A stretch of 33,465 nucleotides of DNA, taken from positions 9,240 to 42,704 of the forward strand of contig MU271574.1 of NCBI GenBank assembly GCA_021432655.1, in the 5' to 3' direction. Origin of the DNA: Atractiella rhizophila. Its lineage: Eukaryota. The notes beneath the pieces are model-generated. The model was not told where the DNA came from. It saw nothing but the letters and a program-made list of their open reading frames with translations, and did not search any database. This document shows positions 1,492 to 10,898 of the stretch, piece by piece; positions within the stretch are counted from its first letter, which is position 1, and the number at the start of each line of letters is the position of its first letter. The position numbers and the translations under genes are program-made.

Positions 1492-2760
1492 AGATCTTCT
1501 GCCAATTGGAATAGAGTTAGGACAAAACTTCCCAATAGGCTTTGAGAGAAAGGTCTTAGCTCTGTTACAAATGTCACACCCTTTAACATAGTGTGAAACC
1601 ATCCTGCTCATCACAGGCCACCAATAGTTCATAGACACAAGTTCATATGTCTTGTATCATCCTCCATATCCAGCAATAGCAGGATCATGGTGCATAGAGA
1701 TGATGCCTTGTTGAAGGGATTCATCCTTTGGTACATAGATTTTGCCTCAATATCGTATGAGTCCATCTTCTTCCACTTTCCACTCCTCCTCTCTAACTGC
1801 CTTCTCATTTCCTTCTTTCAGATCCTTAACTGCCTTCACCACCACGTTATCCCGCTTTTCAATCCTTTGAATCTGATCTAAAGCCCTTCTAACTCTTTAT
1901 CCCCCACCAAGACTGTGGCTGGACTCAGCCCTAAGAAAATACTGCCCAGGGATCCCTGCTTACCTTGAATAAAGTATTCTTCTGGTAAAAGGATAATCTC
2001 TTCATTATCCTTGGAACCATCATCATGATCAGCATATTGGGAGAGAGCATCTGGTTTGCCTGAGCTCTCCCCTGGTTGGTGTTAGAGGATGAAGCTGAAG
2101 TAAGAAAGGTAGAGAAGCCAGCAAGCCTGTCCACAATTGAGCTTCTAAGGTTCCTTGAAGTACTGAAGTGCCTTGTGGTCTGTGAGGACAGTGATAGGAA
2201 TAAGATTGACCTTCAAGGAGATAGCAACATTCTTCCAGAGTTCGAACAATTTCCAGCATTGCCTTGTCATAAATCTCATAGTTACATTCAGCAGAGAGAG
2301 ACTTCGAGAGGAAGGCAATGGGGTGGTACCCGCCATCGTCCTTCTTCTACAAGAGAATAGCACCAAGTGCAAAGCCGGAGCTGTCAGCTTCAGCGAGATA
2401 GGGCTTGTAATCTTCTTGAAAAGACAGAACTGGTGCTGTGGTGACTGCCTTTTTTCAGATTGTCAAATGACTGTTTTTGCTGTTGATCCCAATGAAAGAT
2501 AATACCTTCTGAGATAGATTGGGAAGAGTGTGAGCGATGGACAAGAAATCCTGGATGAAGCCGCAATAGAGTTGGGTGAATCCAATAAAAGACTGAACTT
2601 CTTTGAGGTTCCTAGGGGTTGGCCATTCTATTATTACTCCAGCAACTTTGACTGTGTCCATCTTGATTCTAGTTCCAGAGGGGATCTAACTGAGGTATTC
2701 TATTCCTGTTTTAAAACCCACACTTCTCCACTTTGAGGCATAGACCAAATTGTCTGAATC
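1492..2760 (-). mobile_element. Degenerate Ty3/gypsy pol fragment (RT C-terminus/connection, RNase H, integrase Zn-binding), interrupted by the copia insertion
   Basis: Fragments in shifting frames: [93 protein letters not shown]...NYWWPVMSRMVSHYVKGCDICNRAK. The domain order RT-RH-IN is the gypsy order. Many stops and frameshifts. Confidence 0.9.
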
Positions 2761-3143
2761 ATTTACAGATTTCCCGAATCAACTCCCTGTTTGGGCTTGC
2801 AAGTTGTTGAGAAAAATACTAAGTAAATGAATAGTGCATCTCTCACTGATGGAAGTGAGAGTATAGTCGGTGGCGTTTGCAATCTAATGGTGCTTGGAGG
2901 CAAGATATTGTGAGGTAGTGGCAGAAGGAGTGGACACTGCCTATGGGAGTCGCTCTCAAGATTGTAAGGGTACGATTTAGAGGAATTAGATTGCATCCAT
3001 TATTGGTAAGCTACAAAAAGTATGTTGGCATCTAAAAGGACAGGAGAACCATCATAAGAAGAGTCAATGTGAAATGCAAGCAGTCACCATAGTTGACTTA
3101 GAACTCATAAAGCGACAAAAAGTGATGTTACAAGTGGCTTTTG

Positions 3144-3309
3144 TGAGAGAATCTGATGCTGGATGGAGCTAGGGGACAGAGATTGGTGGTCAAAGATGAT
3201 GACCACCTAAACTGCCCCCTAGGGGGCTAAACCTCCGAAATGAAGCAAACACAACAAAGGTGGCTGACCACACAACACAAGACCACGAAATATAACACCT
3301 AATCCAACA
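3144..3309 (-). repeat. Solo LTR of the same copia family
   Basis: 166 bp, about 93% identical to 1326-1491, TG...CA ends, no adjacent PBS, flanked by TTTG on both sides (3140-3143 and 3310-3313). Confidence 0.88.
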
Positions 3310-3946
3310 TTTGCTGCTCTTAAATTCCTTTAATAGGCTGTATTGAGCACATATGTCAAACTGGGCAGCTTCCTCATGTGTAATCGCTGAGAAACTCAAA
3401 TTACGTGGAACACATCATGCTCTCATTCACTCTGCACGAAAGGGTTCTGTGAGAGCCAACAAGAAGGGAAATTAATCAGTAGGAATTACAGAACTCGCCT
3501 AAAAAAAACTCAGATTCCACTTATTCTGAAGGATCAATGACACATATGGAGGGAGGGACATGTGATTGAAGTTTAAAAAATTCATGTTTTGAGTTTCTCA
3601 CTTTCCCTCTACAAGTACAACCAGACTAAGTGAGGGGGAAATCATAGTCAAATTATTAGGTAAGATACCTTGGTAGAGCACATGACCCACCAACCACCAT
3701 TTCCTCCTCACAAGGTAGGTTCAAGACTACAGGCTCTTACATGTGATTCAAATGACACTTAGAGGTCTGTCCCAGCCATTTTTTCCTTCTGTCATTTTCA
3801 GCTGATCAGCTGATCACAGGCAAAACTCAATCGGCGGTGTTTCAGATGGACATTATAGCTGGCCGTATAGTACGGTTCATGTCGGATGTCTTTCCCTGTG
3901 TTCAGAACCCGTGCACATACAACGAAGGAAAATACAACATGTTTAG

Positions 3947-4227
3947 CCCTGTGGAAAGTCCAGGCAGGTTTGTTGAAGGATTACCAGGTCTGGTTTTTTA
4001 CCAGAGTCCACTCCGGTGAAGTTGCAAGAATACCAGGTGGCAATCCAGGTAATTCAAAAGGGAGGACTGGTAAATTACCAGAGAGAGTGGAGCGGGGATG
4101 AAAGGACCGCACCTCGGTTTCCAGTGCTCCAGACTGGTTATTTACTTGTGTCCAGACTGGACTTCAACAGGTAAATAACCAATTATTTTACCATCTCACC
4201 CAGTTTCTGTTCGATATTCTCACAGGG
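3947..4227. repeat. Left terminal region: TIR plus subterminal CCAG/GGTAA motif array
   Basis: TIR 3947-3965; GGTAAATTACC 4069-4079; GGTAAATAACC 4170-4180; CCAGACTGG at 4129 and 4152; inner CACAGGG 4221-4227. Confidence 0.75.
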
Positions 4228-5064
4228 ACTCCTTATTTGATTACCGGGCACGGTATTCTCAAAATCGCCGCTCTTGCTCACATATTCTCGTAGAAATATT
4301 GTTATAAAAAGAGAAATGATAATTGCAACCCGATGTTGTGTGAATCCCTGGTTCCCTCCTCTAGACACAGGCTATCAGCCTAGCCACAAACAAAGCAAGT
4401 AAGTCGAAGGAAGACAAGCAAGAGAGCACGAACGGAGCCTGCTTTAGCAATCTACTAATACGACGCCTTCGCCTTCGCCTTCGCCTTTCCGCCGTTCGCG
4501 CGCCCCTCGTCCGCCTTCTGCTGCCTCTATCCTGCTTCCACTCCGACTCCTTTCCAAGGCACAATAACGATCTGCATGACCGAGTAACGAGTAATTAGAA
4601 GAAGACAACATTGAACCACAATGAAAATGAAGAGGACAAACCTTGGTACAGTTTCTTGCGCATCGCCGTCGGAGCTTCCTCTTGCGCTTCGCGTCCTCCA
4701 AGTCCTTGTACAAAACTCGCTCGAACATCTCGATTGCTACAAATTAAGCCTACACCCGAGTTAGAGGAAGAAGACGATGAAGGTAGTGACATGACACAAG
4801 AATGAAGGTACTAACCTTCAACTGCTCATCACCAATACCCGGTCTGCTGCTCCACTGCTCTCTTGACGTATTATCGGCTCGATTGGGATGAGGGTTCCTT
4901 GCATAAACGTAAGACAAACGAGTTAGAAGTTGTCTGTGAGAAGGCGAACCGAGATGGGCCGAAAGTGCAAAATGAGTGTTTGAAGGAATCTAAGGAATAA
5001 GGAGTGTTATCAGCGTATTTCAAACGTTTAAAGCAAGGCAAAAGCGTATAGAAATTGAAAGAAA

Positions 5065-5440
5065 ACGCGTCACTTCTTCTTCAAGCTTCAAGTCCCCCCT
5101 CCACGGAACAGCTACACTTTCAAACCAAACCAAAGGTCGCGAAAACGATTTCCACGCCTACAAAGCCATACTATATATTCTAAAACACTCACAGAGTGTG
5201 AAGATGCGGCTAGAGCACCTTCCCATCCCCTTGTACGCGTTCACTACATTCCTTCGAATTCCTTCACTCCGAGACCTTCCCATCAACCGACGCGTCGCTA
5301 CTTAGCTGGAGACATAAGAACCATCTAAGAACCCACATTCATTTGTCATAAAGGAGCCCTGACGTTGAAATGGCATCGAATGTTCGTCGAGGCAGGGTTC
5401 CCAAAAAGTGCTGAAGGCGAGAAAAAACGCGTTTTTCGCG
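5065..5440. promoter_or_regulatory. Cluster of MCB (ACGCGT) and SCB-like (CGCGAAA) motifs inside the transposon
   Basis: ACGCGT at 5065, 5235, 5290 and 5427; CGCGAAA at 5138 (+) and 5434-5440 (-). Confidence 0.5.
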
Positions 5441-7749
5441 TCAAAAACCTGCGATGGGGTAGAAACGAGATGGGGGGATGTCGATATCGATTTAGGAGGA
5501 GGATGGCACGGGAATAATGCCGTTTGAGGGAGTCGAGGAGGAGTCGGGTTCGTCGATTTTGAAAACTTTCTAAGTGCACGGTCTGAGACAAATGTGGCCA
5601 AACATTCCTCGAGTTGCTCAGCAGACAACGGACGCAAAGTCCTCAACTCAACAACAGCTCCAGCTCCAGCGTAGCCTCGGCGCCCTCGAGTACCTGAGTC
5701 AAACTATTCGAAAGAAGGGCGGAAGATTGATGATCTGAGGTGGAAGGGTGGCGAGGTGATTCTCCGGTGTGTTTCTTGTTGACTTGACAGAGAAGTCGAA
5801 AAAGGGTAGCTTCTGCATTGTGGCCTGGGCATCTGTGCGGTGACAGGCGTTTACAGATGCGAAGTTTGCACTTTGGAGACTTCTCTGTGCAAGGAAGTTC
5901 CATTCTCACTTTGTCTGATTGCAGCGCTGTCGCTGTGCAGGAGAGGGGCACAGGTATCTTCCTCATCTGCCTATGCCTATACCTACCACAGCCTACCATG
6001 ACGAGCAGCCCTTTTTGACGATGGACGGCGCTCTTAAATTAACTTCAGCCCATAACGATGACTCCGTCCTCCAGAACTGTGCTTAAGCAGAAGAAGATCC
6101 TCATGTCTGTGGACTGAGAGCTATTGCAACAGTTTTGTAAAAGACAGATAATTTCCTTCTGCTTTGGTACAGTATCTGGAGGCGTACAGGATTGGGATCT
6201 TTATCTGGTATGGTCTTCCTCCGTTTTTTTTTCTCTCCGCTGAAGATTTCTTGTGTTCGGTAGCTCTCATGCTCTCAATCGTCCCCGCCATGACTTTGAC
6301 TTTCCCCTCGCCATCTATCATCTTGCCACCGCCCGTCTTTCGTGGCTTCACAACGATTCCTCTCCACCTCTCCCGCTCCCTTTCCGCAGGAGCAGAATCT
6401 TCTGAGGTGTGGATGTGGATGGACGAAGTGCTGGTCTATTGGGCAAGTTCTCTCCCGTCTCGGAACTTGTTGAGGGCTACGACATGTCGACAGCCGCCTG
6501 GTGCCGAGAGATGGATCACAGAGATAAACCTCAACAGTAAGCTAAGTTCTTTCTTTTGCTCAGGCGTTAACATAACTCGTTCGTTTTGTAGTCCCGACTC
6601 CGCTTTGCCATGGCCCACTTGCTCTCCCTTCGATTGGCCATTCCCGATATCAACCTCTAGCGAGCATCGGCAGGAGTCTCATATGTTGAGATTTCGAAAC
6701 AACGGGATGCAATTATCGATTTGCGATGAGTTTATGAACATCCATGTCTGTTCTCACTCGCACTCATTCAGGACTAATCGCTTCAAACAGACTTTCAATC
6801 ATACTCCGCACAGCATGGATTCTAGCTGGAGTTTGTCCCACATCCCACATGACAGGTATCTCCTCTCGCTTCTACCACCGTTGTGTTCTTTCTCCTTCTA
6901 ACTCATTCTCCTTTTAAGCAGTGTCCGATCTTTTTGGCATGATTCTCACCATCCTCTCTCTTCATCCGCCCCTCCTGTTCGACCGAAACCGACTTGTCAA
7001 CTCCCTGTGTTCCTGTCCCTCCGCAACTTCTCTTACCGACACCTCAGGAACTGAATAACCCTCAGCAATTGAGCGCTTTTGACTGTGGCCACACTCACTT
7101 GTCTTATCTCCATAGCAAGCTCGCTCCGTTTCCCCCCAGTCCGCCACTGTGTGAGGTTATCCGGCTAGAATTCGAAGAGGTCATGCTCATTGTGAGATAA
7201 GGCTTAGAAAGAGGGGATACTGACTTATCACAATACTCCAACAATCATCCTGCTCCCTGTGCTGTTTCCATCTGACCTAGCGGCTAAGCTTCAGAGTCTA
7301 TCAAAGTCGAATCGAGATTCAAGAACGACAAAGTTGAGGTGGAGAACAACATGGCCAGTGCACGGACAATCTTCTCGGTAGGGGTGAACCATTCGAACCA
7401 AGCTCTTTCTGGAGAAAGAGGTGGAAGAGGAAGCGAACGGAGAGATGGGTGGATGATGGGATGGGTGCAGTGTTAAGGTATCGAGATGTTGGAAGAGATT
7501 TGTGAAATGAGACATTTCAGCATTGCCCCCGTAGTTTAGGATGGAACCGGCCGGTTAAACTTGAGCAAGAGAGGACACACCTGGATAGTGGATCGTATTT
7601 ATCATGCAGGCAACCTGCGTCAAACCTTCCTCCAATCAACTTGTATAGTTCTCCTGAGTACTCGTCGCTTCTCCTGGCAATGGCTACGCGATGGCTCATT
7701 GGAAGTCGATGGAGATGCCTTGGGGTGTCACGGTTTCGGAGAAGCCTGT

Positions 7750-8416
7750 TAGCAACGGAGCTTCAAGAATCTAATCTGCCCCAAGATGAAGGCCGTCTTC
7801 TCTCCCCTGCCAACGGCGCCGAAAGTCTCAATTGCGATTTCTTGGATGATCCGTTACGCTTCTGCCACCCCTCCCTTTGCTTCGAGCATCGCAGAGAGTC
7901 GGCGAGTGAGATGAGCTCGTTCAAGTTCTAGGAAGATCTGTTATCATATCAATCCGAAATCAGCTCCTCAGTGCGTAATGTAAGTATAAGAAGAATAGGG
8001 AAAAGCGAACCTTTCCTTCCGTAACATCCCTCAGACAGACCGTCAGTCCCTCTCTCTCATCCTCCTCTGCCTTTCCCGCCTCCCAAACCTCCATCACCGC
8101 TCCAACCATCTTCTTCGTGCTCTCCCTAAGTTGTCCATGCTTCTTATTCAACGCCTGAACCTGCTCCTTCAGTTCATTCCAGTCTCTCCTTTCACTCAAC
8201 AACTTCACGATCACCAAAAGCATTCGTGTCGTCGAAGGCTGGTCAGATGCCGAACTGGTTTGTTTTTCGAGAGCGAGAAGGGCGGAAAGCGCTTCTTAGA
8301 CCTGTAAAATTCTCTATTCAGCATGTTTTGAGCCCTGATAAGTAGAGAAATCGCGACAAACATTGAGAATGGCTAGCGATTCGTATCAGCTCGTCCACCT
8401 GGCTCGTGAAATCAGC
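7750..8416 (-). pseudogene. RPN5: Captured N-terminal fragment of 26S proteasome lid subunit RPN5/PSMD12, introns retained
   Basis: Spliced translation: ADFTSQVDELI/ESLAILN|V*EALSALLALEKQTSSASDQPSTTRMLLVIVKLL...LNKKHGQLRESTKKMV...LRDVTEGK|IFLELERAHLTRRLS.../IIQEIAIETFGAVGRGEKTAFILGQIR. This matches the RPN5 motifs LEKQTR.ASD, VTEGKIYVEIERARLT and ETYGSM...EFILEQMR. GT-AG introns at 8361-8302 and 8010-7938; stops at 8296-8298 and 7854-7856; frameshifts present. Confidence 0.9.
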
Positions 8417-8549
8417 ATGCAGCAGTTAGTTCAGCCTGGCATTTCTGCTCCAAGGAACAACTACTCACCGAGGTGCGTGTACTACTTGATCCTGATTGAA
8501 CTCGGGGTGTCGTCGCAGTGGTTTTGCCTGCAGAAATGCGAATCATTGA

Positions 8550-8727
8550 ATACTGGCTTCCCCAGTAAAAAACAGCTAAAAAACCTGTTTACTCACCAGT
8601 AAAAAACCAGGCTCGACGTTCCCGCTTTCTCGCCCGGTATTGGTTCATTTTTACCAGCCTTGCCCAGGTAAATTACCGGCACTAAAAACCAGTGGTCAAA
8701 AAAAACTGGCCTGGACTGTTCACAGGG
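8550..8727. repeat. Right terminal region: subterminal motif array plus TIR
   Basis: CCAGTAAAAAAC twice (about 8562 and 8597), TTTTTACCAG about 8648, GGTAAATTACC 8667-8677, TIR 8709-8727. Confidence 0.75.
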
Positions 8728-9271
8728 TGTTTAGTTTTATGCCTTCCCTTTTAATCTACCCCTCCATATTGTTGTGCACCTTCCGGCAAGGTCAATCTGT
8801 TGTAGTTTCTTCCTTAGTTACTGCTAACAGATGCTTTGCTTTATTATCTATGCTTCAAGTTATGATCCAGGTTTACGGTCAAAACGGCTTTCATGTGACA
8901 CTCTTTTTTGTTTTTTTTTGGTTCTGTTGGAAACCAATGTGCTGAGGAGTGAAGCTAGGTACCACTTGGTTGCGTTTGGCTGAGCTCTTGCAAATGCATG
9001 AGCACCAGGAAATGTGTGTTTATATCGCCTATAGCAGTGGCAACTAGAAAGTAGTGGAACATTCCAGAAAACTAAGGAACTTTGGCATCGAGTGGCAACG
9101 AAACTAAACTGCAAAATCCAACAGGTTCATATAAGACTTGATTGTTGCGAAATTATACGGATTTGTGTTTCTTGGAGTTGGCCTGTAAATATATTGACCG
9201 GGATAGCAATGCGACAGTTTCAAATTTCATTAGAATAATCAGGCTTAACAACACTTCGAAACATAATCGGG

Positions 9272-10898
9272 ATGGTTGCGAAAGACGACACCCAGTTTGG
9301 TGAACTGTTCTCCTGGCTCCTGGAGCACCAGAAATATCAAAGCTTTCCGTTCAAATTGCAGATCAACCATGGTACGCACACAGCTCATCCATCTTGATGC
9401 CTTTAAGTTAATCCAGCAGCTGGCATTCGTGGACTTGTCGCCACTCGTGACATACCGTTTTCAAGCGAATTAGCAACAATTCCTGCTGGCGCATTGTTAA
9501 ATTCTCACACTCTCAAGTCGTACTACAGCTCTGACTTACAATCTGCCTTTACCACAACACAACTATTGTCGCTTCATTTGGCACGTTATCGCAAAACCAT
9601 TTTGTGTGAAGGAGACTTGTCTGCGCCGGGCTTTGTCGAATGGAACCATTTCTTGAACTCCTTTCCGCAGGAATACAACTGGCCAACCTGGCACCGAGAG
9701 CAGATTTGGAAGAGGCTCCAAGGGTTTGCTCCCGAAACCCTGTCAAAGAAGGTGGAGGATGTAACACACCGACTGGCGATAGACTGGAAAATAGTGGAAA
9801 AACTTTGGGTAGGTACCTTAAAACGCTTCCGAGTACAATAATGACTTCGATATCAGAATGAAGGACGAGAAAGCCAAGACTGCGTTGACATGGAGTATTT
9901 TGAGTGGGGATGGTGGACTGGTACGTGCATTGAATGTCTTAGTCTATGAACCATATGATGTTGGCGCAGTAAATACACGTTGTCTCTACTACGATCTCAG
10001 GAGGAAACCGTCGGTGGATAACAATTTGACTTTGGCACCAATTCTTGAGTAAGCCATCTCAATTTTGGCATGGTAGGATGTGCTTGACGGCTCTGAATCA
10101 GCATGGTGACTGTTATGGACCAAACTACAAAGCAACCACTAATATCTGATGTAGGCAAATCACTCCGCCAAAACTTCAGTCCGTGTGCCGCTTTCATATC
10201 GGTGCAACATGCCTGATTCACTTGGAAGTGCTCCATACTTGTTGGCCCTCCAGAAAGAGCATCTACTTTCCCATCACCGTTGATCATGCATGCACCAGCG
10301 AGCACTTCCTCCGGTACCAGCGGCTTGTTTCTTCGGAAAGGCAGCGAGGTATTGCTGTCATATGGGGCACACAGCAATGCTCTCCTTTTGGCTGAATACG
10401 GATTTGTTCTTTCTACGTCGCCGGAGACACTATCCAGCCTCACTCTCGATGTTTCAAGCCTAATCGAAGCCTTTTTTCAGACCACAGATGCAAAGAGGAA
10501 GGCGCAAACCCTGCAGGAGGAAGGCTATTGGGGGTGCGTCAGTACCGTCTCATGCGGGAGATCTGAGCCTCGTCGACAGAGACTACACCTTGCACTGTGA
10601 CTTTACGTCTTTTCGACTGCTTGTGGCTCTTAGGCTGCTCGTTGCCGACAGCGACGAGCAAGCATGGCGGAGCATGCTGCATGGAGAAAAGGAGATCATC
10701 TCCTGCAGGAACGAAGAAGCCGTGTTCAAGAAAATAGTTTCTGTGTGCACAGTTCTCAAGAGAGACGTAGAAAGGAAGCTAACCCGCTTGAGAGAACTGG
10801 TTGATGATGGCGAAGAAAATGAGCTGTGCAAAAACATTATAGTAATCTGCGAAGAAGAGCTTTATTGTATAGATCAAAATTTGGGAAGGCACACATAA
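9272..10898 (+). CDS. SET-domain protein lysine methyltransferase (RKM2/SETD4-like), multi-exon
   Basis: Spliced motifs GIRGLVATRDIP, VNTRCLYY...LTLAPILD-M-ANHS and GSEVLLSYGAHSNALLLAEYGFV; C-terminal helical region SFRLLVALRLL. Confidence 0.88.

Follow-up and report, generated by a model that had tools for sequence, protein, structure and literature searches.

A candidate non-autonomous DNA transposon carrying a captured fragment of the proteasome gene RPN5 in the fungus Atractiella rhizophila

A stretch of 33,465 nucleotides of Atractiella rhizophila (assembly GCA_021432655.1, contig MU271574.1, positions 9,240 to 42,704 of the forward strand), referred to as the window, contains a 4781-bp segment at 3947-8727 that reads as an element bounded by terminal inverted repeats (TIRs), with the ends CCCTGTG...CACAGGG. 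We put at roughly 80% the probability that this segment is a copy of a low-copy, non-autonomous family of cut-and-paste TIR elements, one that had earlier captured a piece of RPN5, the gene for a lid subunit of the 26S proteasome, and then spread it. An exact 7-bp direct repeat, TGTTTAG, abuts both inverted ends and is read as the target site duplication (TSD). A second, diverged copy of the locus lacks the entire segment, its flanks meeting at one TGTTTAG, and the RPN5 piece inside it is a truncated relative of genes located elsewhere. The original prediction, made from the letters of the DNA alone, had proposed a Pack-type, gene-capturing transposon at this place.

At the left junction (3940-3965), the flank ends in ACA and is followed by the left TSD copy (TGTTTAG, 3940-3946) and then by CCCTGTGGAAAGTCCAGGC, the 19-nt core of the left TIR, which spans 3947-3974 on the plus strand. 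The right junction (8709-8741) reads GCCTGGACTGTTCACAGGG, followed by the right TSD copy (TGTTTAG, 8728-8734) and TTTTATG; the right TIR spans 8700-8727 on the minus strand, and its core, at 8709-8727, has the reverse complement CCCTGTGAACAGTCCAGGC. The two ends agree at 17 of the 19 core positions, and agreement is 82% if the repeat is extended to 28 nt. The terminal pattern has two sites in the window, both of them element ends, with 0.07 expected and two or more reached in 0 of 100 shuffles. Inverted pairs of 19-mers with at most 2 mismatches and a spacing of 100-10000 bp were also counted in the window and in 15 shuffles. Five such pairs were present in the window versus 0-7 (mean 2.1) per shuffle; by itself, the inverted repeat is not beyond chance expectation. 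A direct repeat of 7 bp adjoins the 3947/8727 pair only, the other four pairs having 0-2 bp, and no inverted pair with a flanking repeat of at least 5 bp was found in the 15 shuffles. We estimate analytically that about 1e-4 combinations of a TIR with an abutting 7-bp repeat would be expected per window. There is also a 20-nt internal inverted repeat (4318-4337/6698-6717, 90% match) that has no flanking direct repeat and may be due to chance or to a nested rearrangement.

The words TACCAG and CTGGTA recur in the inner ~250 bp of each end, often as CTGGT-(A/T)5-6-ACCAG palindromes. Sites resembling CTGGTAAATTACCAG number eight versus 0.67 expected, a count reached in 0 of 100 shuffles, and all eight fall within 3990-4182 or 8665-8679. 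For TACCAG, 6 of the 14 sites in the 33.5 kb fall in the two end regions, which together make up ~500 bp. Repeat and motif counts delimit a left subterminal region at 3975-4200, with TACCAG/CTGGTA and CTGGT(A/T)nACCAG palindromes, and a right one at 8480-8708, with CCAGTAAAAAAC twice, CAGGTAAATTACC and others. These subterminal motifs are real. The length of the element, its 17/19 ends, the exact TSD and the motif-rich subterminal regions, all of which had been proposed beforehand, were confirmed by the sequence and the shuffles.

Public contigs from the same organism, A. rhizophila or a very close relative, were aligned to positions 2500-10500 of the window. Two sets, X1 and X2, come from one sample that we guess to be DNA, and contain 0.59 and 0.57 of the sampled words, respectively. 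A third set, X3, has the properties of RNA from the same species, with GT..AG joints in the neighboring gene and ~99% identity at 9419-10500. The conclusions draw on X1-X4; six further sets, X5-X10, have shares of 0.05-0.07. One contig each in X1, X2 and X3 joins 3946 directly to 8736, keeping the left flank through the end of the left TSD copy. The X3 contig with this empty form (depth 23) covers 3818-3946 (129 letters, 11 differing, 7 gaps) and 8736-8872 (137 letters, 6 differing) and, as both flanks differ from the window, it stems from an allele or a duplicate that has diverged rather than from a slip in assembly. An empty site with a single TGTTTAG, the footprint that the original prediction had suggested looking for in other strains, is therefore present; the contrast of filled and empty forms is one between diverged locus copies within a single sample and not between strains. 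Since the flanks are joined at one TGTTTAG without the segment, the ends and the cargo were inserted, or are absent, as one unit. The occurrence of the empty form in an RNA-like run further places the insertion site in a transcribed region, ~0.7 kb upstream of a plus-strand gene starting near 9407.

The locus copy lacking the element is diverged 5-10% from the window, and the differences include indels, with skips of 96 bp (3506-3601), 213 bp, 252 bp and 4789 bp. A second haplotype is also seen in the left flank of X1/X2, where the variants at 3854-3864 are in common with X3 (depth 118/360 in X1). The two annotated RPN5 proteins of A. rhizophila are near-identical across their first ~330 amino acids (aa). 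Two diverged locus copies along with two RPN5 proteins suggest either separately assembled haplotypes of a dikaryon, that is, alleles, or a large duplication.

The only match above the Pfam cut-off in the element is PSMD12/CSN4_N (PF22241, E 2.5e-25) at 7963-8295 on the minus strand. The frame that carries it shares 85% identity with a pair of A. rhizophila RPN5 proteins; for the remaining 82 of the 84 matches, identity does not exceed 54%. When these two proteins were used in tblastn, three pieces with 84-85% identity were recovered: aa 10-20 at 8416-8384; aa 42-132 at 8268-7996, where the open Pfam-matched frame extends the exon to 8295; and aa 127-188 at 7940-7755, with one in-frame stop. 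RPN5 beyond aa 188 (of 480-498) gave no tblastn match in the element, and the RPN5 start codon is likely near 8442. Pfam, tblastn and the parent mRNA contigs thus delimit a captured 5' fragment of about aa 1-188 at 7755-8443 on the minus strand, which keeps its introns and is truncated after aa 188. The parent mRNA contigs (X3) diverge from the window at the exon borders 7939, 8011 and 8297, and the loose contig end at 8297 reads as exon 1 of the parent RPN5. The intron-sized gaps and the contig departures at exon borders indicate that the fragment was captured as genomic DNA and not as cDNA. Judged by its sequence, the fragment is a pseudogene, and its ~84% protein identity, set against copies of the element that are 97-99% alike, makes it older than the spread of these copies. 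The claim that RPN5 lies inside the element therefore held. The wider claim, that the interior consists of decayed host-like gene pieces, stood for RPN5, which makes up ~0.7 kb of the 4.8-kb element, and not for the remainder, where two other frames have no homologue and the rest has no Pfam match.

Contig depth is a weak proxy for copy number and not a copy number, and this applies to all the depths that follow, the DNA nature of X1 and X2 being itself a guess. The X2 contig at the left end (3968-4924; 6 differing letters, 10 gaps) has a depth of 773, and the X2 contig across the RPN5 part (7938-8353; 2 differing letters) a depth of 848; in the same set, depths are 135-226 for flank contigs and 84-132 for those of the empty haplotype. 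The element ends lie on contigs of several-fold depth and are thus not single-copy. At 8577, within the right subterminal region, a variant with one additional A accounts for a depth of 1408/1523 in X1 and 727/832 in X2; the remaining depth, about 105-115, belongs to the form seen in the window. Up to nine contigs lie over single interior places (place 6358, X2). By this weak proxy, the copies would number several, perhaps 3-12, with 97-99% likeness among them and the RPN5 piece included. The original prediction had named single-copy termini, or the lack of an empty site in related strains together with a syntenic resident interior, as grounds for giving up the idea; the depth proxy speaks against the former, and an empty site exists.

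A (CGCCTT)4 microsatellite at 4464-4487 has one unit fewer in other copies (6 letters omitted at 4464). The interior stretch 6581-7045 has about single-copy depth (207 in X2, 371 in X1) and no RNA cover (X3 depth 0 in the bin 6772-7038), and is perhaps special to this copy; missing RNA cover, as at 6772-7038 in X3, is no evidence of silence. Two further joints in X1/X2, 5613>6333 and 6636>7938, hint at structural variants among the copies, but their shorter sides, of 25-33 letters with the likeness threshold set at 80, are too small to support a conclusion.

As the original prediction had it, no transposase is recognizable: none of the 79 stop-to-stop frames of at least 40 aa has a transposase domain (Pfam, E up to 0.1 or 1). 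Contig joints in X3 and in another set, X4, reveal a transcribed and spliced interior at 4072-5554, where a minus-strand transcript running from ~5554 to 4072 carries four canonical GT..AG introns (4572-4641, 4750-4815, 4898-4949 and 4990-5192). The spliced transcript has no frame longer than 133 aa, even with family-majority indels (32 of 32 combinations), and a hidden intact gene there is therefore unlikely. A 249-codon stop-free frame at 6152-6901 on the plus strand is C/T-rich (GC skew -0.17, AT skew -0.20), has no Pfam match, and is probably non-coding and open through its composition. Apart from two minus-strand frames discussed below, the interior frames were compared with Pfam only, and Rfam gave no match at 2500-10500 with E up to 0.1. 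These comparisons do not support a host-gene origin of the ~3.5 kb outside RPN5, which codes for nothing recognizable.

Some of these results weigh against a gene-capturing transposon family. The joint 3946>8736 omits 4789 bases and not the ideal 4788, the one-base excess seeming to reflect a TTTT run, just past the TSD, that is shorter by one T in the empty form. No other copy of the element was found within the 33.5-kb window, the estimate of several copies rests on contig depths, a poor measure, and an autonomous partner with the same ends is not known. All 31 metagenome loci that matched the terminal pattern have nothing beyond that 19-24-nt pattern in common with the element and are ascribed to chance. 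Only one cargo piece, RPN5, has a known parent; the interior frame at 5305-5703 (minus strand), the longest of the spliced transcript, matched no protein at E <=0.001 among 1.84 billion representatives, and for the frame at 5646-6038 (minus strand) none of 311 candidates, longer proteins only, was a homologue. As far as their sequences can tell, the termini match no family with which they were compared.

The orphan interior may also fit an ordinary deletion derivative, in which 4200-7750 would be mostly the decayed sequence of the family itself (for instance, what is left of an intron-rich transposase gene and its untranslated regions) and RPN5 the sole passenger, with no host mosaic of the Pack-MULE kind. 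We regard this as a serious possibility, though not the favored one. The non-RPN5 interior matches the ends in its several-fold depth, the minus-strand transcript with its four introns ends within ~125 bp of the left end, and the interior has no homologue among host-type proteins, all as such a derivative would have it; yet no transposase-related Pfam domain appears in the 79 frames even at E up to 1, and the majority-indel combinations open no frame exceeding 133 aa. That the segment is not a transposon at all, being resident DNA deleted from the other allele between chance 7-bp repeats with inverted ends by coincidence, is very improbable. The abundance of 19-mer inverted pairs, no rarer than chance, and the joint that is one base off could be taken in its favor, but each inverted repeat borders its direct repeat with no base between, an arrangement seen in 0 of 15 shuffles, motif clusters of the same kind occur at both ends, parts of the segment lie on several-fold-depth contigs with many variants, and the RPN5 piece it contains is truncated and diverged, a duplicate of a gene located elsewhere. 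Even less credible is a pair of independent elements resembling miniature inverted-repeat transposable elements (MITEs) that flank a resident RPN5 pseudogene and mimic a single element. The ends are indeed short motif-rich modules of ~250 bp, and other small high-copy repeats are nearby (bins 3034-3300 and 8908-9174); against this, the empty form lacks all of 3947-8735, RPN5 included, its flanks meeting at one TGTTTAG, and the RPN5 part is as raised in depth as the ends. One gene-bearing, non-autonomous TIR element thus remains our preferred reading.

Of five Pack-type features considered, the fifth being an autonomous relative with the same ends, four were found in this element: a TIR with a TSD; no transposase of its own; a host-gene fragment with a parent elsewhere; and cargo that moves with the ends, in copies according to the depth proxy. 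It resembles plant Pack-MULEs and Pack-CACTAs, and the fungal gene capture known as transduplication, in its TIRs, its TSD and a host gene piece that multiplies with the element, and also in that the fragment is transcribed and a non-autonomous form exists. Fungal transduplication was described in 2013 in Pyrenophora tritici-repentis, with a hAT element carrying histone H3 and a Tc1/mariner case (PMC3538342), and a hAT carrying H3 is reported from Pseudocercospora fijiensis and relatives (PMC6710886). These cases are ascomycete hAT or Tc1/mariner elements that often hold a whole gene and a transposase, whereas here the host is a basidiomycete (Pucciniomycotina), no transposase is present, and the cargo is truncated and intron-bearing, with a 7-bp TSD and CCC...GGG termini. 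The original interpretation was upheld in part, for a non-autonomous TIR element that moved as one unit with its RPN5 cargo; gene capture in fungi as such has been known since 2013. No paper was found in the literature on Atractiella transposons.

A short cascade of steps could account for these features. A transposase encoded elsewhere, presumably of the DDE type, would bind the ~19-bp TIRs and the TACCAG/CTGGTA sites within ~250 bp of the ends. The element would be excised and then inserted at a 7-bp staggered cut, which would give rise to the TGTTTAG duplication. An ancestor of the element would have taken up a genomic RPN5 piece comprising the promoter-proximal end and exons 1-3 with introns, most likely by template switching during post-excision gap repair, as proposed for Pack-MULEs, and the RPN5-bearing form would then have multiplied to several copies. 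Transcription may begin at the captured RPN5 5' end and read on into the element; an X3 contig over 7225-7937 extends past the end of RPN5 homology at 7755.

Ends and TSDs differ among superfamilies. The ends of hAT elements usually begin with CA (5'-CA(A/G)NG-like) and their typical TSD is 8 bp; P-element ends start with CATG; piggyBac has CCC...GGG termini and inserts at TTAA with a 4-bp duplication; and MULEs have a TSD of ~8-11 bp and usually long TIRs. We rejected piggyBac, the TSD here being TGTTTAG, of 7 bp and not TTAA, as well as CACTA/Pack-CACTA (CACTA-type termini, 2-3-bp TSD), the element having CCCTGTG ends and a 7-bp TSD. A TSD of 7 bp and a TIR of about 19-28 bp are likewise not typical of a MULE. 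Among the 79 frames of this copy, Pfam revealed no hAT dimerization domain or transposase remnant and no THAP or P-transposase remnant.

The original prediction had treated 7-bp TSDs as uncommon, which was an overstatement. They are made by hAT7 of Pucciniales, by Kyakuja (KDZ) of Laccaria bicolor, an element with 5'-CA..TG-3' termini and no TIRs (PMC12730594), and by Galileo and 1360 of the P superfamily (PMC4168063), and Repbase hAT families annotated with a 7-bp TSD exist as well (PMC4455052). The likeness to hAT7 extends to the Pucciniomycotina host, the short TIRs and the short motifs that recur within a few hundred subterminal bp; hAT7, however, starts with CAAC or CAGC in 10 of 10 consensus sequences examined (PMC12730594), whereas the element starts with CCCTGTG. 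With Kyakuja, it shares the 7-bp TSD and a basidiomycete host, but it has clear TIRs and CCC..GGG ends. Given the CCCTGTG start and CACAGGG end, the element lacks a defining feature of hAT7 and one of Kyakuja, and neither is accepted as the family, on the basis of the termini and, for Kyakuja, also of the presence of TIRs. Dada, described as having a 6-7-bp TSD, no TIRs and small RNA genes as targets (PMC3706591), was set aside as well: TIRs are present, the window has no tRNA gene, and the Rfam search at 2500-10500 was empty. To the P superfamily, for which a TSD of 7 or 8 bp is expected, the element is tied by the 7-bp TSD, by the transposase-binding sites expected inside the ends, and by the occurrence of that superfamily in the same subphylum, the Repbase fungal P elements being from Pucciniales and Allomyces only (PMC5751038).

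This copy does not allow the superfamily to be named, as the original prediction had stated, and the ends fit no compared family. Some other or undescribed superfamily is the assignment we lean to, tentatively; a P-like one is rather unlikely, and a MULE-like element and an aberrant hAT are each a little less likely still, even if membership in P or MULE may apply. It is doubtful, and less probable than any of these assignments, that the element is the first member seen of an undescribed fungal TIR lineage marked by a 7-bp TSD, CCC...GGG termini and TACCAG/CTGGTA motifs, a combination not matched by hAT7, Kyakuja, P/Galileo, piggyBac, MULE or CACTA. If this were so, the unseen transposase would define a new group, ranking as a superfamily or close to one, that moves pieces of host genes around in an early-branching fungus of the Pucciniomycotina.

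The surroundings of the element contain other repeats and host genes. A piece of a copia-type long terminal repeat retrotransposon lies at 3-1227 on the minus strand (Retrotran_gag_2, DUF4219, Pol beta-barrel) and extends past the left end of the window. The host genes encode an SPB4-type helicase, Tim54, MCM6, importin-11, a UCH protease and SPIN90; the MCM6 exons of the window agree with A. rhizophila MCM6 at 98-99%, a value of 92% reflecting intron read-through in the query frame. Together with the RPN5 identities, this points to A. rhizophila (Pucciniomycotina, Atractiellomycetes) or a very close relative as the source of the window. At 3034-3314, there is a very high-copy short repeat (summed X1 depth ~68,000 vs ~300 in the flanks) with two short hairpins, GGTGGTCAAAGATGATGACCACC and GCCCCCTAGGGGGC; the second haplotype lacks 213 bp of it, at 3101-3313 (joint 3100>3314), and the repeat looks like a polymorphic insertion of the MITE or short interspersed nuclear element type. 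A second very high-copy repeat lies at 8873-9174 (X1 depth ~27,700), of which the 252-bp stretch 8873-9124 is missing from the same contig as the empty site (joint 8872>9125; X1, X2 and X3).

The element at 3947-8727 is a clear basidiomycete example, supported by an empty site, of a host gene fragment borne by a non-autonomous DNA transposon, the fungal cases that we found in the literature being ascomycete hAT and Tc1/mariner elements. Speculatively, the captured 5' end of RPN5, its probable promoter and a run-on transcript would form a chimeric unit that could affect the expression of an essential proteasome gene. The element also flags a TIR family unlike the 7-bp-TSD lineages described in fungi, and its transposase could extend the catalogue of fungal DNA transposons.

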